From assembly GCF_029227855.1 (NCBI RefSeq), contig NZ_CP074356.1: a stretch of 64,000 bases of DNA; one strand, 5' to 3'. The notes under the pieces are model-generated. The model ran no database searches and was not told the DNA's origin. It worked only from the letters and a program-made list of their open reading frames with translations. A program made the position numbers and the translations under genes. The stretch is from Escherichia coli (GTDB taxonomy: Bacteria; Pseudomonadota; Gammaproteobacteria; Enterobacterales; Enterobacteriaceae). Shown here one piece after another: positions 4,221 through 18,742 of the stretch; positions within the stretch are counted from its first letter, which is position 1; every line of letters starts with the position of its first letter.

Positions 4221-5720
4221 ATGCTAAATTTATTTGTTGGCCTTGATATATACACGGGGCTTTTGTTATTACTTGCTCTGGCATTTGTGTTGTTCTACGA
4301 AGCAATCAATGGTTTTCATGATACGGCGAATGCGGTGGCAACCGTTATTTATACTCGTGCCATGCAACCACAACTTGCTGTGGTGATGGCGGCATTTTTT
4401 AACTTTTTTGGCGTATTGCTAGGCGGACTTAGCGTTGCCTATGCCATTGTCCATATGTTGCCAACCGATTTGTTGCTGAATATGGGGTCAACTCACGGCC
4501 TGGCGATGGTCTTTTCCATGCTGCTGGCGGCGATTATCTGGAACCTGGGAACGTGGTTCTTTGGTTTACCGGCCTCCAGTTCGCATACCTTGATTGGTGC
4601 GATTATCGGCATCGGTTTAACCAACGCGCTGTTAACCGGCTCATCGGTGATGGATGCGTTAAACCTGCGTGAAGTGACCAAAATTTTCTCCTCGCTGATT
4701 GTTTCCCCTATCGTCGGCCTGGTCATTGCGGGAGGCCTGATATTCCTGCTGCGCCGCTACTGGAGCGGGACGAAAAAGCGTGACCGTATTCACCGCATTC
4801 CGGAAGATCGCAAAAAGAAAAAAGGCAAACGTAAGCCACCATTCTGGACGCGTATTGCGCTGATTGTTTCCGCTGCGGGCGTGGCGTTTTCGCACGGTGC
4901 TAACGACGGGCAGAAAGGGATCGGCCTGGTGATGCTGGTACTGGTGGGGATTGCCCCTGCTGGCTTCGTCGTCAATATGAAAGCGTCCGGCTATGAAATT
5001 ACCCGTACCCGCGATGCCGTCACCAACTTCGAACACTACCTGCAACAGCATCCTGAACTGCCGCAGAAGTTGATTGCGATGGAACCTCCATTGCCTGCGG
5101 CATCGACTGATGGCACGCAAGTAACGGAGTTTCACTGTCATCCGGCAAATACCTTTGATGCGATTGCGCGCGTTAAAACGATGCTGCCAGGCAATATGGA
5201 AAGTTACGAGCCGTTAAGCGTGAGTCAGCGCAGCCAGCTGCGCCGCATTATGCTGTGCATCTCTGATACCTCCGCGAAGCTGGCGAAACTGCCAGGCGTC
5301 AGTAAAGAAGACCAGAACCTGCTGAAAAAACTGCGCAGCGATATGTTAAGCACCATTGAGTACGCTCCGGTGTGGATCATCATGGCAGTAGCTCTGGCGC
5401 TCGGCATTGGCACCATGATTGGCTGGCGTCGTGTAGCGATGACCATCGGTGAGAAGATTGGTAAGCGCGGCATGACGTATGCGCAAGGCATGGCGGCACA
5501 AATGACGGCGGCAGTGTCTATCGGCCTTGCCAGTTATATTGGGATGCCCGTCTCCACAACACACGTCCTCTCGTCTGCGGTAGCAGGGACGATGGTGGTG
5601 GACGGCGGTGGGTTACAGCGTAAAACGGTAACCAGCATCCTGATGGCGTGGGTGTTTACTTTACCGGCGGCGATTTTTCTTTCTGGTGGGTTGTACTGGA
5701 TAGCATTGCAGTTGATTTAA
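4221..5720 (+). CDS. pitB: Low-affinity inorganic phosphate transporter PitB (499 aa)
   Basis: Polytopic membrane protein; N-terminus [45 protein letters not shown] with the PiT-family GFHDTANAV signature; length 499 aa. Confidence 0.9.
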
Positions 5721-5768
5721 CCTTCCTGAAAATGCCCGGTCCTGGCGATCGGGCATTTCCATTTTTGA

Positions 5769-6461
5769 CTAGTGATAACCACGCGCGGTCATAAAATCCG
5801 TAATCGCTTTTTCCGCATCAACCAGCACTTGTTCCAGCGGTTGATTGGCATCGATATCAACCAGTTGCGCGCCTCCAAAGGTTAACTGTGGCATTATGGC
5901 TATCTTCCTTTCCAGCGATTCTCTTTTGTGGTCAGGCTTACGCGCGCAGGCCACGTCCAGATCGACATTGAGTTTGATGACCAGATCGGGCTTATGGCTC
6001 GCCATCCAGTGAAACGCTTTACGTTCCTGGCTTGCCAGCCATGAGACAAAACGACCACCTTCAACGTTAGGTGGGAACACCGTACCATCGTAAGCACCAG
6101 GAATTTGGTCCTGAGGATAACGGTCGGTTAGAACAATTAACCCGCGACGACGACAGGCAAGCATATGACGAAAGCGCAGTAAGCGACGGGCGACAAACGC
6201 TGTAATTACCAGCGCCGGAACAGGGCCAGGCAATTTTTTTGCTGTTTTCACCTGATTTCGTTCAATTGTTTTATGTAAGGATTTTCCCATCAACGGTAAT
6301 TTTGTCACTGCACGACCGACATTTCCGGCCTGTTTTCCTAAATGAACTCTTTCGGCAGCACCATATTTTTCGACAACGGTAATGAGATGTTCACACACCG
6401 TTGACTTGCCTGAACCATCGCTACCAATAACGGCAATTAATGGAGGTGTTATTGACTGCAT
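5769..6461 (-). CDS. yghT: YghT, P-loop NTPase of unknown function (230 aa)
   Basis: Walker [14 protein letters not shown] near N-terminus; DRYPQ and ARKPDH motifs shared with YghS and YghR (paralogs). Confidence 0.85.
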
Positions 6462-6634
6462 GAATATATCCTTTAATTTAAATATCCATTAAAAATATTT
6501 ATTTGGTTAATGTGTTTTTATGAAAGCGTAATTCAGGTCAATGTCACAATTAACCATTGTCACAATAAGGTTGAACGGATATTCTGAGCACGGACCACGT
6601 AATATTCAATACATTATTTGCTGCCGGGTTTTTC
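6462..6634. promoter_or_regulatory. Divergent intergenic region yghT <-> yghS (probable promoters)
   Basis: AT-rich 170-bp spacer between divergently oriented starts; no sites mapped by eye. Confidence 0.3.
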
Positions 6635-7348
6635 GTGAATCAACGTAATATGTCAATAATTAATTCCACGCCAGTGCGTGTTATTGCCATTGTAGGATAT
6701 GATGGTTCAGGTAAATCGACCCTCACGGCAAGCCTGGTAAATGAACTGGCAGCAACAATGCCAACAGAACACATTTATCTCGGGCAATCGTCCGGGCGAA
6801 TTGGCGAATGGATTTCACAGCTCCCTGTTATTGGCGCACCTTTTGGGCGTTATTTGCGAAGTAAAGCGGCACATGTGCACGAAAAGCCCTTAACACCGCC
6901 TGGCAATATTACTGCGCTGGTTATCTATCTGCTTTCCTGCTGGCGGGCGTACAAGTTTCGCAAAATGTTGTGTAAAAGCCAGCAAGGCTATCTGCTCATC
7001 ACCGACCGCTACCCGCAGGTTGAAGTGCCGGGTTTTCGCTTTGATGGCCCGCAATTGGCAAAAACCACGGGCGGTAACGGTTGGATAAAAATGTTAAGGC
7101 AGCGCGAGCTGAAGCTGTACCAATGGATGGCGTCTTATTTGCCCGTATTGTTGATTCGTCTTGGCATTGATGAACAAACGGCGTTTGCGCGTAAACCTGA
7201 CCACCAACTGGCGGCGTTACAGGAAAAAATCGCCGTTACGCCGCAACTGACATTCAATGGCGCAAAGATCCTTGAACTGGATGGTCGGCAACCAGCCGAT
7301 GAAATTATGCAAGCGTCACTACGTGCAATTCACGCCGCGCTTCCCTGA
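6635..7348 (+). CDS. yghS: YghS, P-loop NTPase of unknown function (237 aa; start may be GTG 6635 or ATG 6650)
   Basis: Walker A IAIVGYDGSGKSTL; DRYPQ and ARKPDH motifs; paralog of YghR/YghT. Confidence 0.85.
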   Translation: MNQRNMSIINSTPVRVIAIVGYDGSGKSTLTASLVNELAATMPTEHIYLGQSSGRIGEWISQLPVIGAPFGRYLRSKAAHVHEKPLTPPGNITALVIYLLSCWRAYKFRKMLCKSQQGYLLITDRYPQVEVPGFRFDGPQLAKTTGGNGWIKMLRQRELKLYQWMASYLPVLLIRLGIDEQTAFARKPDHQLAALQEKIAVTPQLTFNGAKILELDGRQPADEIMQASLRAIHAALP

Positions 7349-7379
7349 TCACCAAAATGGATAGGGGATGATTTAACGA

Positions 7380-8138
7380 ATGGATGCACTACAAACACAA
7401 ACTGTTAATAGTACAACCGCGCCGCAGCCCAACTACATTCCGGGGCTGATTGCGGTGGTCGGGTGTGATGGCACCGGTAAATCCACACTGACCACCGACC
7501 TGGTGAAATCGCTGCAACAACACTGGCAAACCGAGCGGCGCTATCTGGGGCTGCTCTCCGGCGAAGACGGCGACAAAATCAAACGATTGCCGTTGGTTGG
7601 CGTCTGGCTCGAACGGCGACTGGCGGCCAAATCCTCGAAAACCCAAAGCATGAAAACCAAATCTCCAGCGCTATGGGCGGCGGTGATTATGTACTGCTTC
7701 TCGCTGCGAAGAATGGCGAATCTACGCAAGGTTCAGCGACTGGCGCAAAGTGGCGTTCTGGTGGTCAGCGATCGCTTCCCGCAGGCTGAAATTTCGGGCT
7801 TTTATTATGACGGACCGGGGATCGGCGTCGAACGTGCGACCGGGAAAATCAGCATGTTTCTGGCGCAGCGCGAACGGCGTTTATACCAACAAATGGCGCA
7901 ATACCGTCCTGAATTAATCATTCGTTTGGGGATTGATATTGATACTGCCATCTCCCGCAAGCCTGACCATGACTATGCCGAGCTGCAGGACAAAATCGGC
8001 GTCATGTCGACGATTGGCTATAACGGCTCAAAAATTCTTGAGATTGATTCCAGAGCGCCCTACAGCGAAGTGCTGGAACAGGCACAGAAGGCGGTTTCTC
8101 TGGTTGCCATCGTTTCTGACCGCCGAAGTTTAACTTAA
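7380..8138 (+). CDS. yghR: YghR, P-loop NTPase of unknown function (252 aa)
   Basis: Walker A IAVVGCDGTGKSTL; DRFPQ and SRKPDH motifs; paralog of YghS/YghT. Confidence 0.85.
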   Translation: MDALQTQTVNSTTAPQPNYIPGLIAVVGCDGTGKSTLTTDLVKSLQQHWQTERRYLGLLSGEDGDKIKRLPLVGVWLERRLAAKSSKTQSMKTKSPALWAAVIMYCFSLRRMANLRKVQRLAQSGVLVVSDRFPQAEISGFYYDGPGIGVERATGKISMFLAQRERRLYQQMAQYRPELIIRLGIDIDTAISRKPDHDYAELQDKIGVMSTIGYNGSKILEIDSRAPYSEVLEQAQKAVSLVAIVSDRRSLT

Positions 8139-8183
8139 GGCTGGCGGGATACTTTTTACTATCAACGATAAGGTCAGGCTGAA

Positions 8184-9533
8184 TTGGCGGGTTTTAACAT
8201 CAAACATTGGTTTGCAGATGGCGCGTTTCGCACCATTATTCGCAATAGCGCCTGGTTAGGCTCCAGTAATGTCGTGAGCGCTTTGCTGGGTCTGTTGGCG
8301 CTCTCGTGTGCCGGTAAAGGGATGACGCCCGCCATGTTTGGCGTACTGGTGATTGTGCAATCGTACGCCAAGTCGATCAGCGATTTTATTAAGTTTCAGA
8401 CATGGCAGTTGGTGGTGCAGTACGGAACGCCAGCCTTGACCAACAATAATCCGCAGCAATTTCGCAATGTCGTCTCATTTTCCTTCTCGTTGGATATCGT
8501 CAGCGGCGCGGTGGCGATTGTCGGCGGCATTGCCTTACTCCCTTTTCTTTCCCATTCATTAGGTCTGGATGACCAAAGCTTTTGGCTGGCAGCGCTGTAT
8601 TGCACGCTCATTCCTTCAATGGCTTCCTCCACGCCGACCGGCATTCTGCGTGCGGTAGATCGCTTCGACTTAATTGCTGTACAGCAGGCGACGAAACCTT
8701 TTCTGCGCGCAGCGGGGAGCGTCGTTGCCTGGTATTTTGACTTTGGTTTTGCGGGTTTTGTTATTGCCTGGTACGCCTCGAATCTTGTTGGCGGCACCAT
8801 GTACTGGTGGTTTGCCGCACGTGAATTACGCCGCAGAAATATCCATAACGCGTTCAAATTGAATCTGTTTGAGTCTGCCCGACACATCAAAGGCGCGTGG
8901 AGTTTTGTCTGGTCAACCAACATTGCCCATTCCATCTGGTCGGCGCGTAATTCGTGCAGCACAGTGTTGGTGGGGATCGTGTTAGGACCCGCTGCCGCCG
9001 GGTTATTTAAAATCGCCATGACATTCTTCGACGCCGCCGGAACGCCAGCGGGTTTACTGGGTAAAAGTTTTTACCCAGAGGTGATGCGTTTAGATCCGCG
9101 CACCACCAGACCGTGGTTGTTAGGCGTGAAGTCCGGTTTACTGGCGGGCGGAATCGGTATTCTGGTGGCGCTCGCGGTGTTGATCGTCGGCAAGCCGCTC
9201 ATTTCGCTGGTGTTTGGCGTTAAGTATCTCGAAGCGTATGACCTGATTCAGGTGATGCTGGGCGCAATTGTGATCTCGATGCTGGGCTTCCCTCAGGAGT
9301 CATTGCTATTGATGGCGGGAAAACAGCGCGCTTTTCTCGTGGCGCAAACCATCGCCTCAATCGGCTACATCGTATTGCTGTTCATGTTCTGTCATCTGTT
9401 TGGCGTGCTGGGGGCTGCATTTGCTTACTTCGGTGGGCAATGTCTGGATGTGGTGTTCTCGCTAATTCCGACCTTAAAGGCATTTTTTCAGCGCCATTCC
9501 TTGCTTTATAACTCAGCCGGAGAGAAATCCTGA
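8184..9533 (+). CDS. yghQ: YghQ, polytopic inner-membrane protein, MOP/Wzx-like putative flippase (449 aa as called from TTG start; first in-frame ATG is codon 47)
   Basis: Many hydrophobic segments throughout; N-terminus resembles polysaccharide-transporter family; stop overlaps downstream ATG (ATGA). Confidence 0.8.
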   Translation: MAGFNIKHWFADGAFRTIIRNSAWLGSSNVVSALLGLLALSCAGKGMTPAMFGVLVIVQSYAKSISDFIKFQTWQLVVQYGTPALTNNNPQQFRNVVSFSFSLDIVSGAVAIVGGIALLPFLSHSLGLDDQSFWLAALYCTLIPSMASSTPTGILRAVDRFDLIAVQQATKPFLRAAGSVVAWYFDFGFAGFVIAWYASNLVGGTMYWWFAARELRRRNIHNAFKLNLFESARHIKGAWSFVWSTNIAHSIWSARNSCSTVLVGIVLGPAAAGLFKIAMTFFDAAGTPAGLLGKSFYPEVMRLDPRTTRPWLLGVKSGLLAGGIGILVALAVLIVGKPLISLVFGVKYLEAYDLIQVMLGAIVISMLGFPQESLLLMAGKQRAFLVAQTIASIGYIVLLFMFCHLFGVLGAAFAYFGGQCLDVVFSLIPTLKAFFQRHSLLYNSAGEKS

Positions 9534-10357
9534 TGATGAGAAAATATTTCCCGCTTGAGGCGAGCGAGCGTCTATTTGTTGCGATTGAAGAAGATGATGT
9601 TGTTGATGCACAGGTCAGTTTGCCGCCGACTATCGCACTAAGTTGTACCACCGAAATCATCCATGATAATTACGCGTTATGCCTGCAATTCTGGCTCAAT
9701 GGCGTCAATCGCCAGGAGTTACTGCGTTTAATATGCAAACAGGCCAAAGGCGATGAGCTGACTGCTGATGAGCGCAAACAATTTAAATACATGCGAGCGC
9801 GCTACAAGCACCTGCGTTTTGCGCAACGGCTGTATTTAAAAAAGCATCAGGCCGGATTTTTATTCGGCAAAACGACCGTTTTTTTGGGGCGTTTTCAGGA
9901 CGGCTTTCGTAACGGTAAGAAAAATATTGTGTCGTATTACGGCAACCTGTTACGGGTTTATTTAAGCTCTCCGGTCTGGTCGTTGGTGAACTATTCATTA
10001 CGCCATAGCCAGTTAGAAAGCGTAAGCGGTTTTATTGCCTATCGGCAAAAGCAAATGCATACCCTGAAAGAGATAATTGCCAAATCGCGACTAACTGGCA
10101 GGGAATTTCATGATGTGCGAAAAATCATCAGCCAGCAGGTTTCTTATTACGACACCCTAAGATCGCTTGATCCTGAAAATAAAGAGGCGTTACAGATTTC
10201 CCGCTTCCTCGCCGCCATTAATGGCCTGATGGGGGATAAACACGACGACATGGTGGCGGATGATATGGAAAACCGCCAGTCGTATGATGCACCGATGGCG
10301 CTGGATAGCGATATTCGTCAGCGCTTAGAACTGCTGATTTCGCGTTTTCCGCTATAA
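9533..10357 (+). CDS. Hypothetical soluble protein (274 aa), translationally coupled to yghQ
   Basis: ATG overlaps yghQ stop; no transmembrane segments or signal peptide evident; basic/aromatic-rich helical-looking sequence; no domain recognised by eye. Confidence 0.6.
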   Translation: MMRKYFPLEASERLFVAIEEDDVVDAQVSLPPTIALSCTTEIIHDNYALCLQFWLNGVNRQELLRLICKQAKGDELTADERKQFKYMRARYKHLRFAQRLYLKKHQAGFLFGKTTVFLGRFQDGFRNGKKNIVSYYGNLLRVYLSSPVWSLVNYSLRHSQLESVSGFIAYRQKQMHTLKEIIAKSRLTGREFHDVRKIISQQVSYYDTLRSLDPENKEALQISRFLAAINGLMGDKHDDMVADDMENRQSYDAPMALDSDIRQRLELLISRFPL

Positions 10358-10365
10358 CCGGAGCA

Positions 10366-10929
10366 ATGATGTCATCTCGTTTGATTATTGCGCTGGTTAT
10401 CATGCTCTTAGCCCCGGGTGTGCAGGCGCACAATTTCGTCACTGGTAAAACGGTTACCCCTGTTTATATCCAGGAAGGCGGCGAGCTGCTTCTGAATAGC
10501 GAAGACGAAATTCACTACCAAAAGTGGAACAGCACACAGCTGGCGGGAAAAGTCCGCATTATTCAGTATATCGCCGGGCGTAAGTCGGCGAAGAAAAAGA
10601 ACTCACTGTTAATTAAAGCGGTTGAAGCGGCAAACTTTCCGCAGGATCGTTTTCAGCCCACCACCATTGTGAACACTGATGATGCCATCTTTGGTACCGG
10701 CTATTTTGTCGTTGGCAAAATCGAAAAAAATAAACGCCGCTATCCATGGGCGCAATTCGTTATTGACGGCAATGGACAGGGACGCGTTGCCTGGCACTTG
10801 CAGGAGCAGAGTTCAACCATTCTGGTGCTGAATAAAACCGGGCAAATTCAGTGGGCAAAGGACGGCAGCCTGACGCCGGAAGAGGTAGAACATGTCATTG
10901 CGCTGGCGCAGAAACTGATCAATGAATAA
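10366..10929 (+). CDS. Hypothetical exported (periplasmic) protein, 187 aa
   Basis: N-terminal signal peptide MMSSRLIIALVIMLLAPGVQA followed by hydrophilic mature domain; starts 8 nt after the previous stop. Confidence 0.6.
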   Translation: MMSSRLIIALVIMLLAPGVQAHNFVTGKTVTPVYIQEGGELLLNSEDEIHYQKWNSTQLAGKVRIIQYIAGRKSAKKKNSLLIKAVEAANFPQDRFQPTTIVNTDDAIFGTGYFVVGKIEKNKRRYPWAQFVIDGNGQGRVAWHLQEQSSTILVLNKTGQIQWAKDGSLTPEEVEHVIALAQKLINE

Positions 10930-10959
10930 AAAATTCAAAGGATTGAGGGCGTTAGTGAG

Positions 10960-12030
10960 ATGAAGCTGGTTGAACACTACATCATGCGTGGTACGCGCCG
11001 TCTGGTGCTGATTATCGTCGGTTTTCTGATCTTTATTTTCGCCAGCTACTCCGCACAGCGTTATCTGACCGAAGCGGCAAATGGGACATTAGCTCTTGAT
11101 GTTGTGCTGGATATTGTTTTCTACAAGGTGCTGATTGCACTGGAGATGTTGTTACCTGTTGGACTGTATGTGTCAGTTGGCGTGACGCTAGGGCAGATGT
11201 ATACCGACTCGGAAATTACCGCTATTTCTGCGGCGGGGGGCAGTCCGGGACGCTTGTACAAAGCCGTTCTTTATCTGGCGATACCGCTAAGTATTTTTGT
11301 CACCCTTCTGTCGATGTATGGTCGTCCGTGGGCTTATGCGCAGATTTATCAACTGGAGCAACAGTCACAGTCGGAGCTGGATGTTCGCCAGTTGCGGGCA
11401 AAGAAATTTAACACTAACGATAACGGACGAATGATCCTTTCGCAGACGGTTGATCAGGATAATAATCGCCTGACTGACGCGCTGATTTATACTTCTACTG
11501 CCAATCGAACCCGCATTTTCCGCGCCCGTTCGGTTGATGTGGTTGACCCATCACCTGAGAAACCGACCGTTATGTTGCATAACGGGACCGCCTATCTTCT
11601 CGATCATCAGGGGCGTGACGACAACGAACAGATCTACCGTAATCTGCAATTACATCTGAATCCGCTGGATCAAAGCCCTAACGTCAAACGCAAAGCAAAA
11701 TCGGTCACGGAGCTGGCGCGCTCCGCCTTTCCTGCCGATCATGCCGAACTGCAATGGCGACAAAGCCGTGGCCTGACAGCGTTGTTGATGGCGCTGCTGG
11801 CCATTTCATTAAGTCGGGTAAAACCGCGGCAAGGGCGATTTTCAACGTTATTGCCACTGACGTTGCTGTTTGTTGCCATTTTTTATGGCGGCGACGTCTG
11901 CCGTACGCTGGTGGCTAACGGCGCGATTCCCCTCATTCCTGGTTTGTGGTTAGTACCCGGACTCATGCTAATGGGCCTGCTGATGCTGGTCGCACGCGAC
12001 TTCTCTTTGCTGCAGAAATTTTCCCGATGA
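10960..12030 (+). CDS. LptF-like permease (YjgP/YjgQ family), 356 aa
   Basis: N-terminus MKLVEHYIMRGTRRLVLIIVGFLIFIF typical of LptF/LptG; hydrophobic N- and C-terminal segments flanking a large hydrophilic loop; ~360 aa; RBS upstream. Confidence 0.75.
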   Translation: MKLVEHYIMRGTRRLVLIIVGFLIFIFASYSAQRYLTEAANGTLALDVVLDIVFYKVLIALEMLLPVGLYVSVGVTLGQMYTDSEITAISAAGGSPGRLYKAVLYLAIPLSIFVTLLSMYGRPWAYAQIYQLEQQSQSELDVRQLRAKKFNTNDNGRMILSQTVDQDNNRLTDALIYTSTANRTRIFRARSVDVVDPSPEKPTVMLHNGTAYLLDHQGRDDNEQIYRNLQLHLNPLDQSPNVKRKAKSVTELARSAFPADHAELQWRQSRGLTALLMALLAISLSRVKPRQGRFSTLLPLTLLFVAIFYGGDVCRTLVANGAIPLIPGLWLVPGLMLMGLLMLVARDFSLLQKFSR

Positions 12031-13106
12031 ATGTTTTCAGTCGCTATTTAATCCGTCATCTCTTTCTCGGTTTTGCCGCCGCCGCAGGGCTATTGCTGCC
12101 GCTTTTTACTACCTTCAACCTGATTAACGAACTGGATGATGTCAGCCCGGGCGGTTATCGCTGGACTCAGGCGGTGCTGGTGGTGCTGATGACCTTACCG
12201 CGTACACTGGTCGAACTTTCGCCGTTTATCGCCTTATTGGGAGGGATTGTTGGCCTGGGGCAGTTATCGAAAAACAGTGAGCTTACCGCCATTCGCAGCA
12301 CTGGGTTTTCTATCTTCCGTATTGCACTGGTGGCGCTGGTTGCCGGGATATTGTGGACTGTTTCGTTAGGCGCGATAGATGAGTGGGTGGCGTCGCCATT
12401 GCAGCAACAGGCGCTGCAAATCAAATCGACTGCCACCGCGTTGGGGGAGGACGATGACATTACCGGCAATATGCTTTGGGCCAGGCGCGGTAATGAATTT
12501 GTGACGGTGAAATCGCTGAACGAGCAGGGCCAGCCTGTGGGCGTGGAGATATTTCATTATCGCGACGATCTCTCGCTCGAATCCTACATTTTTGCACGCA
12601 GTGCCTCCATTGAAGACGACAAAACATGGATCCTGCATGGTGTGAATCATAAAAAATGGTTGAATGGCAAAGAAACGCTGGAAACATCAGATAATCTTGC
12701 CTGGCAATCGGCCTTCACCAGTATGAATCTTGAAGAGTTATCGATGCCGGGAAATACTTTTTCTGTCCGTCAACTTAATCATTACATCCATTATTTGCAG
12801 GAAACTGGGCAACCCAGCAGCGAATACCGCCTTGCACTGTGGGAAAAACTGGGACAACCCATCCTGACCCTGGCGATGATTTTGCTGGCTGTGCCGTTTA
12901 CCTTTAGTGCCCCGCGTTCGCCAGGGATGGGTAGCCGTCTCGCTGTAGGCGTCATCGTTGGCTTACTCACCTGGATCAGCTATCAAATCATGGTCAATCT
13001 GGGGTTGCTATTTGCGTTGAGCGCACCTGTTACCGCGCTCGGTTTACCGGTAGCGTTTGTGCTGGTGGCGTTGAGCCTGGTGTATTGGTATGACAGACAA
13101 CATTAA
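12027..13106 (+). CDS. LptG-like permease (YjgP/YjgQ family), 359 aa
   Basis: Track ORF trimmed to ATG overlapping upstream stop (ATGA); MNVFSRYLIRHLFLGFAAAAGLLLPLF typical LptF/G N-terminus; same topology pattern as partner. Confidence 0.75.
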   Translation: MNVFSRYLIRHLFLGFAAAAGLLLPLFTTFNLINELDDVSPGGYRWTQAVLVVLMTLPRTLVELSPFIALLGGIVGLGQLSKNSELTAIRSTGFSIFRIALVALVAGILWTVSLGAIDEWVASPLQQQALQIKSTATALGEDDDITGNMLWARRGNEFVTVKSLNEQGQPVGVEIFHYRDDLSLESYIFARSASIEDDKTWILHGVNHKKWLNGKETLETSDNLAWQSAFTSMNLEELSMPGNTFSVRQLNHYIHYLQETGQPSSEYRLALWEKLGQPILTLAMILLAVPFTFSAPRSPGMGSRLAVGVIVGLLTWISYQIMVNLGLLFALSAPVTALGLPVAFVLVALSLVYWYDRQH

Positions 13107-13107
13107 A

Positions 13108-13136
13108 CCCGCCGTGGCGCAGCGCCACAGCGGGCT
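13108..13136. terminator. Palindromic stem-loop between convergent operons (probable bidirectional terminator)
   Basis: cccgccgtggcgc a gcgccacagcggg inverted repeat in the 34-bp gap between the LptG-like stop and the alpha-oxoamine synthase stop. Confidence 0.45.
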
Positions 13137-13140
13137 CACA

Positions 13141-14313
13141 TTACTGCTTCAGAGTAGCGAACGCTTGAATGATGGCATCAATTTGCTCACGACTGTGGGC
13201 AGCGTTTACGCTACAGCGCAGCAGCGTGATGCCTGCAGGCGCGGCAGGTGGCAGGATAAGATTCACATAAACGCCCAGCGAAATAAGCTCGCGCCAGATG
13301 CGTAAACCGTCCTCTTTCGAACCGATTATTACTGGCACTACCGGGCTAATATGTGAACTTAACTCGTAACCCAGTTTTTGCAGACCGTCATACAGATGGT
13401 TGGCGTTATCCATCAGCTTTTGCCGCAGCTCTGGTTGTGAGGCAATGGTTCTTAACGACGAGCGCACGGTCGCAATGCAGGACGGAGAAGGAGAGGCGGT
13501 AAAAATATACGGGCGGCTGCCGTAGCGCAGCACTTCCATCGCTTCCGAACCGACAGCAAAACCGCCAATCGAGGCCAGACTTTTACTGAAAGTACCAACG
13601 ATAATATCCACATCATCTTCAACGCCAACGGCTTCAGCCAGTCCGCGCCCCGTTGCGCCTAACACGCCAAACGAATGCGCTTCATCGACAATCAAATAAC
13701 CACCGAGACGACGTTTGATATCAACAATTTCCGCCAGCGGCGCAACGTCACCGAGCATACTGTAGATGCCTTCAACGATGATAATCGCCTCTTTTGCCCG
13801 TTCACCGAGGCGAACCATGCGCCGTTCCAGATCTTTAGCATCGTTATGGCGGAAACGAATAATTTCCGCGCCACCGAGAGAACAGGCGTCATAAATACTG
13901 GCGTGGCTGTCGGCATCCAGTAACACCACGGCGTTATGGTCGGCAAGTGCGCTGATGACGCCTAAATTAGCGGTATAACCGGTTGAAAAAACGATAGCGG
14001 TAGGGCGATTAAAAAACTCGGCGATCTCTTTCTCTAACGCCAGATGCGGCGCATAACTGCCGTTTGCCATACGAGAACCGGTGGTGCCGGTGCCTTGGGC
14101 CGCTAACGCTGCCTGACCTTCGGCGATGGCATCATGATTAAAGGTTAAACCGAGATAATTATTGGTCCCGGCCAGAATCACTTTTTTATTGCCGATCCGA
14201 CCTTCGGTGGCGGAATACACTTCATCAATACAGGTGCCAAACGGTGTTAACCCGTTGTCACTAAATTGCAGTCGCTCGCCAGCAAGGCGCGCATATTTAT
14301 CGTATAGCCCCAT
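13141..14313 (-). CDS. PLP-dependent alpha-oxoamine synthase, serine palmitoyltransferase-like (390 aa)
   Basis: Class-II aminotransferase fold signature with Schiff-base lysine in GTFSKSLASIGGF (the TFSKS variant is typical of SPT rather than BioF/KBL); Gly-rich loop TGTTGSRMANGS; start overlaps ACP stop (TAATG). Confidence 0.85.
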   Translation of the reverse strand: MGLYDKYARLAGERLQFSDNGLTPFGTCIDEVYSATEGRIGNKKVILAGTNNYLGLTFNHDAIAEGQAALAAQGTGTTGSRMANGSYAPHLALEKEIAEFFNRPTAIVFSTGYTANLGVISALADHNAVVLLDADSHASIYDACSLGGAEIIRFRHNDAKDLERRMVRLGERAKEAIIIVEGIYSMLGDVAPLAEIVDIKRRLGGYLIVDEAHSFGVLGATGRGLAEAVGVEDDVDIIVGTFSKSLASIGGFAVGSEAMEVLRYGSRPYIFTASPSPSCIATVRSSLRTIASQPELRQKLMDNANHLYDGLQKLGYELSSHISPVVPVIIGSKEDGLRIWRELISLGVYVNLILPPAAPAGITLLRCSVNAAHSREQIDAIIQAFATLKQ

Positions 14314-14561
14314 TATTTATTCTCCAGCCATGGAAGTAGTGTTTCCATTAATTGCGCAGGGGTTTTGACATCCAGCAGAATATTAATAGGAATGGAAATA
14401 TCGAATCTGTCTTCCAGCATCATTAAGAGATCCATCACTTTGATCGACTCCAGGCCAAGATCGTTGACGAGATCGCTGTCGGGCTTAATTTCCACACCGT
14501 TTTCGACCAAATCCTGTAAACAGGAAAGGATGTAATCCATTACTATTTCACGATTTACCAT
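14313..14561 (-). CDS. Acyl carrier protein (82 aa)
   Basis: Small acidic protein with phosphopantetheine-attachment motif DLGLESIKVMDL; located between reductase and alpha-oxoamine synthase. Confidence 0.8.
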   Translation of the reverse strand: MVNREIVMDYILSCLQDLVENGVEIKPDSDLVNDLGLESIKVMDLLMMLEDRFDISIPINILLDVKTPAQLMETLLPWLENK

Positions 14562-14592
14562 AGAAACGTTAACACACCTTTAAACAAGACAA

Positions 14593-15507
14593 TCAAAATA
14601 GCCCGTTGCGTAATGCGTGTTCCAGGCTAATCCCGGGAAACCAATTAATATCTTCAGAAATACGGTTATTACTTGCCGACCAGTCGGCGTGGGTTAATTC
14701 ACGAATTTTCGAGCGGGTCAGCATAGGTTCTTTACCTGCCAGGCGACTCAACGCGGTACTGATATCCGCAAGGCAGGTGAGTACCGGCAGAGGAATACCA
14801 ACCATTCGCACGGAACCACAACGGGCGTCGGCGGCAAGCTGTCGTACGTGTTGCCAGTCATAGCCGCCGGGGACGCCATCGCATAATTCATAGGTTTGCG
14901 TCTGTACAGTTTCGGCGCTTAACCACTGCCCCACGGCTTGCGCAAAATCGGTGATGTGCAGGAAAGAGAGTTGTGTATCTGGCGCACCAAGTCGTGGCAG
15001 CAGGCCGCGCAGCATCCAGTCAAACAGCGGTTTTAACTCTTTATCGCCGGGACCATACACGGCTGTCGGGCGAAAAACGCCCAGCGTAATTTCATCAGCC
15101 ATTGCAGTCAGCCGTTGTTCGGCGACGTGTTTGGAATTTGCGTACCAGGAGAGTTCGGGATGGCGCGCCGCCAGCGAAGAGATAAACAGAAAACGTTGGC
15201 AAAAGCCGCTCTCTTTTGCCGCTTGCATCAGTCGCAGGCTGCCGTCAACGTTACAGCGGGTAAAAATCTCTTCTTTGTGCCCGCGCACTTGCCCGGCGCA
15301 ATGGACCACCGCGCTGGCTCCGGCAACCAGTTCGCTAAGTGAATGAGTATCTTCCAGAGAACCGCGCACCCAGGTGAGATTATCATTGACGTGAGCGCGG
15401 GCAGTACGCGTCAATGCGCGAACGTGAAAGCCGCGGGCGAGCAGGTTATCGATAATATATTTACCGATAAACCCGGTAGCGCCCGTCACCGCGACAGTTT
15501 GATTCAT
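14593..15507 (-). CDS. NAD(P)-dependent epimerase/dehydratase-family (extended SDR) reductase, 304 aa
   Basis: N-terminal Rossmann motif VTGATGFIG; catalytic YANSK (YxxxK); start overlaps upstream stop (ATGA). Confidence 0.8.
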   Translation of the reverse strand: MNQTVAVTGATGFIGKYIIDNLLARGFHVRALTRTARAHVNDNLTWVRGSLEDTHSLSELVAGASAVVHCAGQVRGHKEEIFTRCNVDGSLRLMQAAKESGFCQRFLFISSLAARHPELSWYANSKHVAEQRLTAMADEITLGVFRPTAVYGPGDKELKPLFDWMLRGLLPRLGAPDTQLSFLHITDFAQAVGQWLSAETVQTQTYELCDGVPGGYDWQHVRQLAADARCGSVRMVGIPLPVLTCLADISTALSRLAGKEPMLTRSKIRELTHADWSASNNRISEDINWFPGISLEHALRNGLF

Positions 15508-17228
15508 GCCAGGGATTCCTGCACATGAAGGCTTGCAGCATAAGCCTTCTGATAACGTTTTTTCGCTTCCGCACGGGCAGGCTTGCCGGAGGACGTTCGG
15601 GGAATACTGTGGGGCGGCAACAGATCGATAGCCGCGGTCACGCCAAATTCGCTTTGGATCCGTGCTGCCAGCGCGTGGATAAGCTGCCCGCGACGTTCTT
15701 CATCGCTGATCCGACACTGGATCTGCAAAATGATTTTTTCCTGGGCGGTAACAAAAGCAATCGCATCGCCAGAATGAATTTCCGGTTCCTGTTCCGCAAT
15801 ATATTCAATATCCTGCGGCCAGATATTACGGCCACGAATAATAATCAGATCTTTAATGCGTCCGGTGACATACAGATAACCGTCCAGCAGATAACCGAGG
15901 TCGCCGGTGTCTAACCAGCCCGTCGCGGCAATCTCGTCTTGTGAAATCTGGTCGCCAAAGTAACCGCTCATCAGGCTAGGGCCGGAGATGCAAATATGGC
16001 CTACCACACGTTCCGCGACAGGTATACCTGCTTCATTGCGGATTTCAATGCCATGTTCCGGCAACGCTTTACCGCAGTTGACGAAAGTCGATACGGCGCG
16101 TGTTTCAGCATCCGGCGCGACGGCTTTGCCCTGATATTCGAGGATGTCGCGATCCACTTCGTTAACCACAACCCCGGAAGCTTCATCAGAGAAGCTGACA
16201 GCCAGCGCATTTTCTGCCAGTCCGTAGCACGGCATGAAAGTTTTATCGTCAAAGTTGACCTGACGGAAACATTCAGCGAATTGATGGAGTTGTTCTGCGG
16301 AGATGGGTTCTGCACCAATACCAGCGACGCGCCAGCAGGAAAGATCCAGTTCAGCGAGATCTTTTTCATTCACGCGGCGCTGGCACAATTCATAGCCAAA
16401 CGGCGGCGCAACGGAAACGGTGCCGCGATTTTTACTGATCAATTTAAGCCATTGCAGAGGACGCATGGCAAAATCCTGAGTGCGCAAATAATCTACTGAA
16501 AGCTGCGTGGCGACGGGGGTCAGGAGAAAGCCGACCAGTCCCATATCATGGTAGAAAGGCAGCCAGGAGACGCAGCGGTCGCCAGGGCGTAATTTAATGC
16601 CATCGTGGCTTATAGCACGTAGATTAGCCATCACTTCGCGATGGGTGATAATGACGCCACGGGGAAAACGGGTGCTGCCGGAGGTGTACTGGAGGTAGGC
16701 GATATCGTTCGGAACTGGATGCTGGAGTGCAACATCGGCTTCCGGTAATGCCTTAAACCAGGCGTGGCTTAAAACATGTAATTCGGGGTTGTTGTTATGC
16801 GTCGCGGCATTGACCAGCGGTAACCACTCATCACCAGTGATAATGGCTGCGGGCTGGCAACTTGTCAGTAAACCCTGCAGTTTGGCGCTCCAGGAATCCC
16901 GCTGACCGACGCCCATTGGAATCGCCAACGGGACGGCGACTAAGCCGGCATACTGGCAGGAAAAAAAAGCCTCTACGAACCCGCTACTGGTTTCGGCAAT
17001 CAGCGCCACGCGATCGCCTTTTTTCAGGTTCAGCGATAACAACCGCTTCGCACCAGCTTCGGCACGCGCTTTTAACGTCTGATATTCCAGTTGATCTTCA
17101 AGTTGGCAACGTCTGTCATAAAAATTCATTCCGGCGCTACTCAGAGCGGCGTAGTCCAAAGCATCAACCAGCGTTGGAAAATCGGCATAGCGCATAGGTA
17201 GGGAATGCGTAAAGATTTTATTAGACAT
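15504..17228 (-). CDS. Fatty acyl-AMP ligase / acyl-ACP synthetase-like adenylating enzyme (~574 aa; track ORF extends to TTG at 17255)
   Basis: AMP-binding core YTSGSTRFPRGV; WLPFYHDMGLVG motif and overall length resemble FAAL-type enzymes; first gene of the minus-strand operon. Start chosen at first ATG (MSNKIFTHSL). Confidence 0.8.
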   Translation of the reverse strand: MSNKIFTHSLPMRYADFPTLVDALDYAALSSAGMNFYDRRCQLEDQLEYQTLKARAEAGAKRLLSLNLKKGDRVALIAETSSGFVEAFFSCQYAGLVAVPLAIPMGVGQRDSWSAKLQGLLTSCQPAAIITGDEWLPLVNAATHNNNPELHVLSHAWFKALPEADVALQHPVPNDIAYLQYTSGSTRFPRGVIITHREVMANLRAISHDGIKLRPGDRCVSWLPFYHDMGLVGFLLTPVATQLSVDYLRTQDFAMRPLQWLKLISKNRGTVSVAPPFGYELCQRRVNEKDLAELDLSCWRVAGIGAEPISAEQLHQFAECFRQVNFDDKTFMPCYGLAENALAVSFSDEASGVVVNEVDRDILEYQGKAVAPDAETRAVSTFVNCGKALPEHGIEIRNEAGIPVAERVVGHICISGPSLMSGYFGDQISQDEIAATGWLDTGDLGYLLDGYLYVTGRIKDLIIIRGRNIWPQDIEYIAEQEPEIHSGDAIAFVTAQEKIILQIQCRISDEERRGQLIHALAARIQSEFGVTAAIDLLPPHSIPRTSSGKPARAEAKKRYQKAYAASLHVQESLA

Positions 17229-17599
17229 ATACACCACGAAAAAATTGGATATCAAAAATAAAATGACAATAATGCGGTGGATTATATAGGCATAAAAGAT
17301 AAATGAGATAATATTTTCATCAGTGTGAAAATGAACATTGATTTAAATAATGAGTTTGAGTTTTTTTGTTTTTATTGTGAATGATATTTAATTTATGAAT
17401 GTATTAAGAAGAAGCCTTGTCCGGTCGCCTTAAATCGACAAAAGGCATTGTGGCGCTTCTGTGTAGTCTCTGACCTTATCGTAATCATTAATAAATACTA
17501 TTTATTCGTCGTTTGTATTCATTGGGTTGATTATTAAGGTGCCGTTCGTTGCTGTTGCAACCTGTTTTTCACCGTTAATTATTTGTTACCCACAGAACT
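17229..17599. promoter_or_regulatory. AT-rich divergent control region between lipid operon (-) and yghO (+)
   Basis: ~370 bp strongly AT-rich non-coding DNA with A/T tracts; no ORF with coding character; expected site of promoters for both flanking units. Confidence 0.35.
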
Positions 17600-18742
17600 A
17601 TGGAATGCGATCTGCTGATGATTAAAATTGAAAAAGTAATTAATAAAAATGACCTTAAGGCATTTATCGCTTTTCCGTCATCACTTTATCCCGACGATCC
17701 AAACTGGATACCCCCTTTATTCATTGAACGCAACGAGCATTTGTCTGCGAAAAATCCGGGGACGGACCATATCATCTGGCAGGCGTGGGTGGCAAAAAAA
17801 GCGGGGCAGATAGTTGGGCGTATTACCGCGCAAATAGATACCTTGCACCGCGAGCGTTACGGTGAAGATACCGGTCATTTCGGCATGATTGACGCCATTG
17901 ATGATCCGCAGGTTTTTGCCGCGTTGTTTGGCGCAGCGGAAGCGTGGTTGAAGTCACAAGGTGCAAGTAAGATCAGCGGTCCTTTCAGCCTGAATATCAA
18001 TCAGGAAAGCGGATTACTGATTGAAGGTTTCGATACACCACCCTGTGCGATGATGCCGCACGGTAAACCGTGGTATGCCGCGCATATTGAACAATTGGGT
18101 TATCACAAAGGCATTGATTTACTAGCGTGGTGGATGCAGCGAACCGATCTCACTTTCTCTCCGGCGCTAAAAAAACTGATGGATCAGGTGCGTAAGAAGG
18201 TGACCATTCGCTGCATCAATCGCCAGCGGTTTGCCGAAGAGATGCAGATCCTGCGTGAGATTTTCAACTCTGGCTGGCAGCACAACTGGGGATTTGTGCC
18301 GTTTACCGAACATGAATTCGCGACTATGGGCGATCAACTTAAATATCTGGTGCCGGACGATATGATCTACATCGCTGAGATTGATTCTGCACCCTGCGCG
18401 TTTATTGTTGGCTTGCCAAACATCAACGAGGCGATTGCCGATCTGAACGGATCGCTCTTTCCCTTCGGCTGGGCAAAATTGCTGTGGCGTTTAAAAGTCA
18501 GCGGTGTGCGAACTGCGCGAGTACCGCTGATGGGCGTGCGGGACGAGTATCAGTTTAGCCGCATCGGCCCGGTGATTGCGCTGTTATTGATTGAAGCCTT
18601 ACGCGATCCGTTTGCCCGCCGGAAGATCGATGCGCTGGAGATGTCATGGATCCTCGAAACCAATACAGGCATGAATAACATGCTGGAACGCATTGGGGCG
18701 GAGCCGTACAAGCGTTACCGATTGTATGAAAAGCAGATTTGA
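17600..18742 (+). CDS. yghO: YghO-family protein, intact (380 aa); possible acyl-CoA N-acyltransferase-like fold
   Basis: Uninterrupted ORF, soluble; position matches yghO next to glcC. Fold assignment is tentative. Confidence 0.7.
   Translation: MECDLLMIKIEKVINKNDLKAFIAFPSSLYPDDPNWIPPLFIERNEHLSAKNPGTDHIIWQAWVAKKAGQIVGRITAQIDTLHRERYGEDTGHFGMIDAIDDPQVFAALFGAAEAWLKSQGASKISGPFSLNINQESGLLIEGFDTPPCAMMPHGKPWYAAHIEQLGYHKGIDLLAWWMQRTDLTFSPALKKLMDQVRKKVTIRCINRQRFAEEMQILREIFNSGWQHNWGFVPFTEHEFATMGDQLKYLVPDDMIYIAEIDSAPCAFIVGLPNINEAIADLNGSLFPFGWAKLLWRLKVSGVRTARVPLMGVRDEYQFSRIGPVIALLLIEALRDPFARRKIDALEMSWILETNTGMNNMLERIGAEPYKRYRLYEKQI

Follow-up and report, generated by a model that had tools for sequence, protein, structure and literature searches.

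Three thymidylate-kinase-like paralogs, YghT, YghS and YghR, as candidate head-group kinases of the Escherichia coli sphingolipid locus

A 64,000-nucleotide stretch of Escherichia coli contig NZ_CP074356.1 (assembly GCF_029227855.1; hereafter 'the window') carries the neighbouring genes yghT, yghS and yghR, which encode three paralogous P-loop proteins next to genes for the synthesis and transport of a sphingolipid (Table 1). Our analysis leads us to propose that YghT, YghS and YghR are the head-group kinases of the E. coli-type sphingolipid locus, filling the place of the unrelated CpgB pathway of Caulobacter. We regard this assignment as about evenly poised between right and wrong, and a role in lipid head-group formation as the best-supported, if unproven, explanation for the three genes. 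Its basis is formed by their paralogy, fold, retention of catalytic residues and purifying selection, and by an operon structure and a genomic linkage that are conserved.

An earlier note on this DNA, made from the sequence alone, had described the three proteins as clear paralogs sharing a Walker A motif, a DR[YF]PQ motif and an ARKPDH/SRKPDH block, and each of these motifs is indeed located in each protein where it had been placed. Pairwise BLASTP comparison over ~218 aligned residues likewise upholds the paralogy, with 36% identity between YghT and YghS (E 5e-53), 35% between YghT and YghR (E 2e-49) and 44% between YghS and YghR (E 3e-60); 55 alignment columns are invariant across the three. 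A fourth paralog was sought in the 64-kb window and not found. All three open reading frames (ORFs) are intact. They are 100% identical to RefSeq yghT, yghS and yghR of E. coli JNEC-KY178, as is the whole part of the window that was queried, and encode basic proteins with isoelectric points (pI) of 9.6–9.8. The allele at 5500–8400 is an uncommon one: at least 99% identity is reached in 68 of the 4784 E. coli genomes that carry the genes, most of them having 95–99%, and the synonymous divergence from another E. coli (locus L004) is ~0.33–0.38, which is high within one species.

YghT, YghS and YghR are proteins of the thymidylate-kinase-type fold, yet, by the curated family cut-offs, they are not deoxythymidine monophosphate (dTMP) kinases. 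All three possess three features of dTMP kinases, namely (i) the P-loop GxDGxGKST, (ii) the DR[YF] motif and (iii) the basic lid [AS]RKPDH, each at least 90% conserved in every orthogroup, and they exhibit the three-layer fold with lid typical of nucleoside monophosphate kinases, their nearest relatives being small-molecule kinases. Pfam searches with the single sequences gave no match at E ≤ 0.001 (the i-E for Thymidylate_kin, PF02223, is 0.43), and other single-sequence matches span the P-loop only; a profile built from 47 diverse members of the family matches structurally characterised thymidylate kinases at an E of 4.6e-11. No competing ATP-binding cassette (ABC), AAA or GTPase fold was detected, and the features of an LptB-like ABC nucleotide-binding domain are absent, the ABC matches comprising only ~25 residues around the P-loop. 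Hence the earlier suggestion of a kinase-like rather than an ABC or AAA fold is borne out by the profile and fold searches, which identify thymidylate kinases, and no unrelated family of non-kinase NTPases, as the closest relatives. Membership in a defence-system or phage family was considered and rejected, the PADLOC matches being of P-loop length only and the PHROG 'thymidylate kinase' match being weak.

The RefSeq name 'dTMP kinase' for yghS and yghT is an over-annotation, because the proteins match dTMP kinases only weakly and stay below the curated cut-off. Membership is defined by a whole-protein score above that cut-off (83.25 bits for TIGR00041 and 193 bits for NF005923), and TIGR00041 scores are 25.1 bits for both YghT and YghS and 30.8 bits for YghR. 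When compared with thymidylate kinase (Tmk), the family is furthermore distinguished by two signatures of its own. The first is a helical insertion of ~40 residues, predicted (partly with low confidence) to extend from after β-strand 2 to the helix before the DRY motif, which carries [HY]-L-G-x-x-x-G...L-P-x-x-G; the second is an invariant P-Q...D-G-P after DR[YF], where the alignment with thymidylate kinases stops. The S-x-x-R element of thymidylate kinase, which we take, like the other dTMP-site residues, to serve nucleotide binding there, is partly kept. Unlike Tmk, moreover, YghT, YghS and YghR are three co-conserved paralogs within a lipid export operon.

Conservation across the family indicates that all three paralogs are maintained as active-site-bearing proteins. 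The 142 family genes that we extracted from 76 genomic loci split into orthogroup T and two further orthogroups, S and R, which are sisters of each other. The triplet is present in Enterobacterales, in Xanthomonadales and in a number of gamma- and beta-proteobacteria besides, while Sphingomonadales, Acetobacteraceae and Pseudomonas have two kinds, one T-type and one S/R-type, a distribution which implies that the paralogy is old. At least 90% conserved in each orthogroup (26 T, 24 S and 26 R sequences; residues numbered as in YghR) are G-x-D-G-x-G-K, R111, D131-R132, P-Q, D144-G, E165, R193-K194-P-D-H and K205. All three orthogroups are under strong purifying selection: the ratio of non-synonymous to synonymous substitution rates (dN/dS) is 0.045–0.094 in comparison with another E. 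coli lineage and 0.04–0.15 in comparison with other genera and, by gene, 0.04–0.06 for yghT and 0.08–0.15 for yghS. Judged by these residues, none of the three would seem to be a degenerate, regulatory copy. The segment aligning with the acceptor-binding 'REPGG' loop of thymidylate kinase contains group-specific residues (H40/K43 in T, Y48/Q51 in S and Y55/L58 in R), which suggests that the paralogs may act on different acceptors.

The neighbouring lipid operon invoked in the earlier note is real. The identities of the ceramide genes and of LptF2/G2, established from annotation and NCBIfam profiles, show it to be the E. coli sphingolipid (ceramide) locus, a cluster for synthesis and transport; the note had missed the sphingolipid identity, the CHAD-like partner protein and the parallel with PPK3 described below. 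On the plus strand, yghS, yghR, yghQ, the CHAD-like gene, the ytfJ-like gene, lptF2 and lptG2 form an operon of seven with overlaps or gaps of at most 45 bp. The spt-acpR-cerR-aasR block is convergent with it, and yghO, which co-occurs with the cluster, lies beyond. The five ceramide-synthesis genes have been characterised for Caulobacter and E. coli B (PMC9386255), and Caulobacter LptF2/G2, which use the sole LptB, are required for sphingolipid transport according to a paper that also draws the locus of E. coli UTI89 (bioRxiv 10.64898/2026.04.12.717747). The gene of the YtfJ-family protein was seen only in the clusters of Enterobacterales, and, Caulobacter LptC2 being without a counterpart in the E. 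coli locus, the protein could serve transport in the periplasm. By eye, its N-terminus is signal-peptide-like, suggesting a location in the periplasm. The Serratia ortholog of the flippase YghQ matches Pfam Polysacc_synt and Polysacc_synt_3. Several RefSeq names in the locus look misleading: yghQ is listed as 'lipopolysaccharide biosynthesis protein', the second-copy permeases as 'LPS export ABC transporter permease LptF/LptG' (LPS, lipopolysaccharide) and, in K-12, yghO as 'putative DNA-binding transcriptional regulator', though it is an acyltransferase of the ceramide-synthase type.

Linkage of the kinase genes to the cluster is observed far beyond E. coli. Among 53 core loci (kinases at least ~35% identical, neighbours counted within 10 kb), 41 have at least two kinase genes, 36 a MOP flippase, 36 a CHAD-like gene, 20 spt and 15 lptF2/G2. 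Serratia, Mangrovibacter and Cedecea have the spt block relocated to a place beside yghT, in inverted orientation, with the kinase genes still in the cluster, and in Rosenbergiella and the Xanthomonadales Dyella and Luteibacter, which have other gene orders, they are still found within it. The linkage has thus outlasted several independent rearrangements, across orders and classes. Most of the taxa concerned either are known to produce sphingolipids or are predicted from their genes to do so (Sphingomonadales, Acetobacteraceae, Nitrosomonas, spt-positive Enterobacterales, Xanthomonadales and Pseudomonas), and two or three kinases, a flippase and a CHAD-like protein constitute a recurring module in sphingolipid-making Proteobacteria.

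Pseudomonas marginalis has a variant of the cluster (locus L043, 7046–13905; also L037). After its spt cluster come genes for an MsbA-like ABC exporter, two kinases and a CptA-like phosphoethanolamine transferase (815 bits), and neither a MOP flippase nor a CHAD-like gene is present; the 236-residue ORF behind the CptA-like gene matches nothing in Pfam or NCBIfam. CptA adds phosphoethanolamine onto the phosphate which LPS heptose has received from a kinase, and the order of two kinases and a CptA-like transferase follows the logic of WaaP acting before CptA/EptC, in which the phosphate decorated by a periplasmic CptA-type transferase comes from a cytoplasmic kinase. WaaP itself differs in having a protein-kinase-like fold, the acceptor here being presumably a sphingolipid and not the LPS core, and the E. 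coli sphingolipid locus is without a transferase. PAP2-family lipid-phosphate phosphatases resembling LpxE, PgpB and SepP recur within or next to the kinase clusters, and yghO of Serratia has a second DAGK_prokar (DgkA-like) gene as its neighbour. Flippases, a CptA-like transferase and lipid phosphatases are the company to be expected for enzymes phosphorylating a lipid at the cytoplasmic face, and a precedent is provided by the lipid A 4'-kinase LpxK, a P-loop kinase that phosphorylates a membrane lipid at that face before flipping and Lpt transport. The idea, voiced as speculation in the earlier note, that the three proteins might phosphorylate a lipid head group or a precursor has gained strength from the operon shared with flippase and export genes, from linkage kept through rearrangement and from the CptA-like and PAP2 neighbours.

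The comparison with Caulobacter shows which place such kinases could occupy. Common to both loci are spt, acpR, cerR, aasR, cerS, lptF2G2 and a MOP-type flippase; in Caulobacter, head-group enzymes are interspersed among them. One of these, CpgB, is a ceramide kinase of the diacylglycerol (DAG)/sphingosine-kinase type with a GGDG motif (PMC10331486) and is unrelated to P-loop kinases. YghR, YghS and YghT, in turn, have the P-loop kinase fold and contain no DAGK catalytic domain with GGDG. The Caulobacter head-group set, i.e., CpgA–D, a phosphoesterase and a HIT protein, has no counterpart in the E. coli cluster, and neither a homolog of YghR, YghS or YghT nor a CHAD-like gene was found in the Caulobacter locus, where three candidates were rejected: CC_1157 is the HIT protein, CC_1167 is glycerophosphotransferase-like and CC_1158 is the phosphoesterase. 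By analogy, the E. coli-specific genes, namely those for the three kinases, the CHAD-like protein and the YtfJ-family protein, may take the slot of the Caulobacter head-group genes.

It is then tempting to outline a pathway from sequence and gene context, inferring that the proteins act as kinases, which lipid accepts the phosphate, in which order the steps occur and what the CHAD-like protein does. Spt, AcpR, AasR, CerR and YghO would synthesise dihydroceramide on the cytoplasmic side of the inner membrane; YghR, YghS and YghT would move one or more phosphates from ATP onto ceramide or phosphorylated intermediates, each paralog possibly using a different acceptor, to yield an anionic head group; the CHAD-like protein would bind this phosphate-rich head group and present the lipid to YghQ for flipping; and LptB together with LptF2G2 would extract the flipped lipid towards the outer membrane.

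The CHAD-like protein of 274 residues, which RefSeq leaves as a 'hypothetical protein', is confidently assigned an all-helical CHAD-like fold in which two helical bundles display a conserved basic surface. Its family is basic (median pI ~9.2), has 14 columns that are at least 85% Lys, Arg or His, and invariably retains R88, K92, H105, H193, R196, K197 and H237. CHAD domains bind polyphosphate and tripolyphosphate via such basic residues (PMC6537752). Compared with established CHAD domains (PF05235; RcCHAD 6qv5, CtCHAD 3e0s, PptA 6rn5), however, the protein has no sequence-level counterpart: none of 26 family members matches the PF05235 profile in Pfam, PDB sequences give no match to the family at E up to 10, and hhalign with E. 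coli YgiF returns a probability of 0.1%. Its gene, moreover, pairs with a flippase gene and not with those of PPK, PPX or TTM enzymes. Two further possibilities were discarded. Apparent fusions of MOP and CHAD-like sequences in Sphingomonas and Luteibacter are artefacts of long stop-free frames in DNA of high G+C content, their N-terminal part having no similarity to YghQ in frame; and the protein is not a free-standing version of the N-terminal domain of the ~500-residue relatives introduced next, since BLASTP found nothing and hhalign gave a probability of 1%.

The sphingolipid-linked, CHAD-associated clade is one part of a wider branch devoted to envelope biosynthesis. A profile search of 1.84 billion representative sequences retrieved 2170 relatives at E ≤ 0.001. 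The distant ones (25–34% identity) often have ~500 residues, with the kinase domain located behind an N-terminal domain of ~250 residues which has no Pfam match and contains a motif, C-H-W-K-S-N...G-x-T-D-L-D-L-L-V, reminiscent of nucleotidyltransferases. Such distant relatives include P0164, P0168, P0173, P0214, P0249, P0250 and the product of L060, 9188–10630. A MOP flippase is joined to the kinase domain in one of them (P0214) and a glycosyltransferase of family GT4 in another, a further one is a tandem duplication, and in Pontibacter the gene of a ~500-residue relative lies within a glycosyltransferase-rich exopolysaccharide cluster. The fusions and this context indicate that the branch as a whole serves the biosynthesis of envelope glycoconjugates or lipids.

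Of 5426 complete E. coli genomes, 4784 carry yghTSR and 4183 match the spt–aasR block, so that ~600 have the kinase genes without it. K-12 MG1655 belongs to the latter: at 3130146–3131340, corresponding to ~9250–17600 of the window, an IS5 element separates a truncated yghQ from yghO, and all genes between that of the CHAD-like protein and aasR, these two included, are gone, the ytfJ-like gene, lptF2G2, spt, acpR and cerR among them. This state is a recent, IS5-associated deletion. The laboratory strain therefore has three kinases but cannot make the lipid, which accounts for the failure of K-12 studies to give yghT, yghS and yghR a function; our literature search on their function yielded screen tables only (silkworm virulence, FlhDC SELEX, SlyA).

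Several points weigh against YghT, YghS and YghR being sphingolipid head-group kinases. (i) Enzymes of the thymidylate-kinase type usually phosphorylate a nucleotide phosphate and not a lipid. (ii) The searchable literature holds no biochemical or lipidomic datum for the three proteins or for an E. coli sphingolipid head group. (iii) Sphingomonadales and Acetobacteraceae, in which sphingolipid genes are known to be scattered, have the kinase, MOP-flippase and CHAD-like genes apart from spt and amid unrelated genes. (iv) The distant relatives sit in exopolysaccharide clusters without sphingolipid genes, and the ancestral substrate hence need not have been a sphingolipid. (v) K-12 knock-outs of the genes showed no silkworm-virulence phenotype, in a strain without the lipid genes. 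(vi) The neighbour protein, matching CHAD domains in fold without matching their sequence profile, can be called CHAD-like by fold only.

A bolder version of the lipid-kinase scheme, which we consider unlikely, holds that the kinases do more than form ceramide-1-phosphate and would extend an oligo- or polyphosphate chain on the ceramide by phosphate-to-phosphate transfer of the thymidylate-kinase/PPK3 type, and that the CHAD-like protein would hold this chain and pass the lipid to the MOP flippase for subsequent export by LptB and LptF2G2. The literature searched makes no mention of a ceramide di-, tri-, bis- or polyphosphate.

Rather unlikely, too, in our judgment, is that the proteins form a PPK3-like heteromeric polyphosphate (polyP) kinase that interconverts ATP/ADP and free polyP, with the CHAD-like protein as polyP-binding partner and polyP merely made beside the lipid genes or supplying phosphate. 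The likeness is nonetheless considerable. PPK3 of Sulfolobus consists of two proteins once annotated as thymidylate kinases, whose genes share an operon with that of a CHAD protein (PMC12995831). As in these Crenarchaeota (Saci_2019/Saci_2020; S. tokodaii ST1543, PDB 2plr/5h70), thymidylate-kinase-like paralogs lie beside a CHAD-like gene in E. coli, where there are three (at least two in 41 of the 53 core loci); ST1543 ranks among the three best structural matches, the dTMP-site residues apparently not being kept; and both the basic character of the kinases and the CHAD-like fold of the neighbour protein would suit polyP. In addition, the phosphate transporter gene pitB adjoins in E. coli, on the far side of a probable terminator, and likewise in Hafnia, Pseudocitrobacter and Citrobacter (C. 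youngae), an adjacency which may be coincidental or reflect a link to phosphate supply. However, the catalytic DRX arginine, which is replaced in the regulatory subunit of PPK3 (PMC12995831), is kept in all three paralogs, with D-R at least 90% conserved in T, S and R, so that no obvious regulatory subunit exists. By sequence, moreover, the ST1543 chain (2plr; E 8e-5 with the family profile, taken as a stand-in for placement in the PPK3 clade) is further away than canonical thymidylate kinases (E 5e-11). Nor does the setting speak of polyP metabolism: no PPX, SixA or Pst genes are nearby, the operon is shared with a lipid flippase and LptF2G2, and the Pseudomonas variant dispenses with the CHAD-like gene and has a lipid phosphoethanolamine transferase. 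E. coli, finally, already possesses PPK1.

That the proteins are nucleotide or small-metabolite kinases, phosphorylating a soluble precursor which another enzyme then attaches to the lipid, was the second option of the earlier note and fits the RefSeq label; we find it improbable. Thymidylate kinases are after all the closest relatives by sequence and fold, the P-loop aspartate is invariant, S-x-x-R is partly kept, and the fusions of distant homologs with GT4 and with the domain bearing the nucleotidyltransferase-like motif hint at activated-precursor chemistry in the wider family. Yet 25–31 bits are far from the dTMP-kinase cut-off of 83 and Pfam Thymidylate_kin gives E > 0.4, the family-specific P-Q...D-G-P replaces the segment past DRY, and among the genes of the E. 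coli cluster there is none for a nucleotidyltransferase, CDP-alcohol transferase or glycosyltransferase to use such a precursor. E. coli has a canonical tmk elsewhere, and one soluble substrate would hardly explain three conserved paralogs.

More improbable still is that the proteins are accessory non-kinase NTPases whose ATP hydrolysis powers or regulates the flippase YghQ or the extraction step of LptF2G2, for example in place of LptB. Such a role would agree with the flippase gene adjoining the kinase genes, with the fusion of a MOP flippase to a kinase domain in P0214 and with the lack of an LptB homolog in sphingolipid loci. It conflicts with a fold and sequence that are those of a phosphotransferase with lid and DRX, unlike an ABC protein, and with MOP flippases not being ATP-driven. 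Caulobacter LptF2G2, furthermore, run on the housekeeping LptB in a species whose locus is without a homolog of the three proteins, which are thus not needed as transporter ATPase. Incidental adjacency of genes acting in an unrelated pathway is the least probable explanation, for although yghTSR without spt is found in K-12 and ~600 further E. coli genomes and the alpha-proteobacterial module lies apart from it, the operon is continuous with the flippase, CHAD-like and lptF2G2 genes, the linkage is kept through independent rearrangements and across classes, and the K-12 state is of recent origin.

Table 1. Features of the E. coli sphingolipid locus and of the three kinase genes (window positions, unless a locus of another genome is named)
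Feature	Position	Strand	Remarks
pitB	4221-5720		low-affinity phosphate transporter gene, convergent with yghT
Hairpin	5730-5758		12-bp stem and T-run between convergent pitB and yghT; probable shared terminator
yghT	5769-6461	-	230 aa; T-type paralog, thymidylate-kinase superfamily; ORF and RefSeq annotation
YghT ARKPDH	5928-5945	-
YghT DRYPQ	6111-6125	-
YghT Walker A GSDGSGKST	6399-6425	-	aa 13-21
yghT/yghS divergent control region	6462-6634		173 bp, 31% G+C; one weak sigma-70-like match at 6557-6585 (+)
yghS	6635-7348	+	237 aa; S-type paralog; opens plus-strand operon; ORF and RefSeq annotation
YghS Walker A GYDGSGKST	6695-6721	+	aa 21-29
YghS DRYPQ	7004-7018	+
YghS ARKPDH	7187-7204	+
yghR	7380-8138	+	252 aa; R-type paralog, sister of S; start 31 bp past yghS
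YghR Walker A GCDGTGKST	7461-7487	+	aa 28-36
YghR DRFPQ	7770-7784	+
YghR SRKPDH	7953-7970	+
yghQ	8184-9533	+	449 aa; MOP-family (Wzx/MurJ-like) flippase; 45 bp past yghR; NCBIfam MOP match weak
CHAD-like protein gene	9533-10357	+	274 aa; unannotated; start overlaps yghQ stop
YtfJ-family protein gene	10366-10929	+	187 aa; TIGR01626 215 bits (cut-off 151)
lptF2	10960-12030	+	second-copy LPS-export permease; NCBIfam LptF 320 bits
lptG2	12027-13106	+	second-copy LPS-export permease; NCBIfam LptG 305 bits
spt	13141-14313	-	NCBIfam serine palmitoyltransferase 599 bits (cut-off 500)
acpR	14313-14561	-	acyl carrier protein; annotation
cerR-like gene	14593-15507	-	epimerase/reductase; annotation
aasR	15504-17228	-	fatty acyl-AMP/ACP ligase; NCBIfam acyl-AMP ligase 870 bits
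yghO	17600-18742	+	N-acyltransferase of bacterial ceramide synthase type ('aca'/bCerS ortholog); ORF; CC_1154 ortholog in PMC9386255
PAP2-family phosphatase and DAGK_prokar (DgkA-like) genes	L044 11885-12451; L018 6655-7374; L002 18401-19228 and 1422-1784

As regards expression, the strong hairpin between pitB and yghT is probably a terminator shared by the two genes, so that yghT would not be co-transcribed with pitB. A promoter scan of the yghT/yghS control region gave nothing better than shuffled sequence. In K-12, a genomic SELEX peak of FlhDC falls in this region and yghS is up 3.1-fold under SlyA over-expression; the low G+C content and the SlyA response fit a locus that is normally silenced, possibly via H-NS. 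In its remaining part (~28600–64000), the window contains sslE with the gsp operon of a type II secretion system (T2SS-beta) and a group-2-type kps capsule locus, which includes a GT29 (sialyltransferase-family) and a GT4 gene and is followed by an IS110 remnant.

The genes had been named, and the locus had been recognised as a sphingolipid locus, before. What appears to be new relative to the literature searched is the placement of YghT, YghS and YghR in a conserved head-group module of kinases, flippase and CHAD-like protein, the identity of the CHAD-like neighbour, and the analogy with PPK3. About three quarters of complete E. coli genomes have an intact sphingolipid locus, judged by the spt–aasR match, and K-12 has lost it; neither a sphingolipid nor its head group is described for E. 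coli in the literature searched. Anionic sphingolipids of Caulobacter can replace LPS, govern sensitivity to polymyxin and detergent, and contribute to virulence. Assigning YghT, YghS, YghR, YghQ and the CHAD-like protein to a module for head-group formation and flipping offers a testable route to the structure of enterobacterial sphingolipids, corrects the 'dTMP kinase' labels in RefSeq, and extends the recent idea that thymidylate-kinase-like paralogs and CHAD proteins carry out phosphate chemistry on substrates other than nucleotides. Should ceramide indeed turn out to bear a polyphosphate chain, then a lipid-anchored (poly)phosphate on the enterobacterial surface would represent a new class of lipid, and both CHAD proteins and thymidylate-kinase-like enzymes would acquire a new role.

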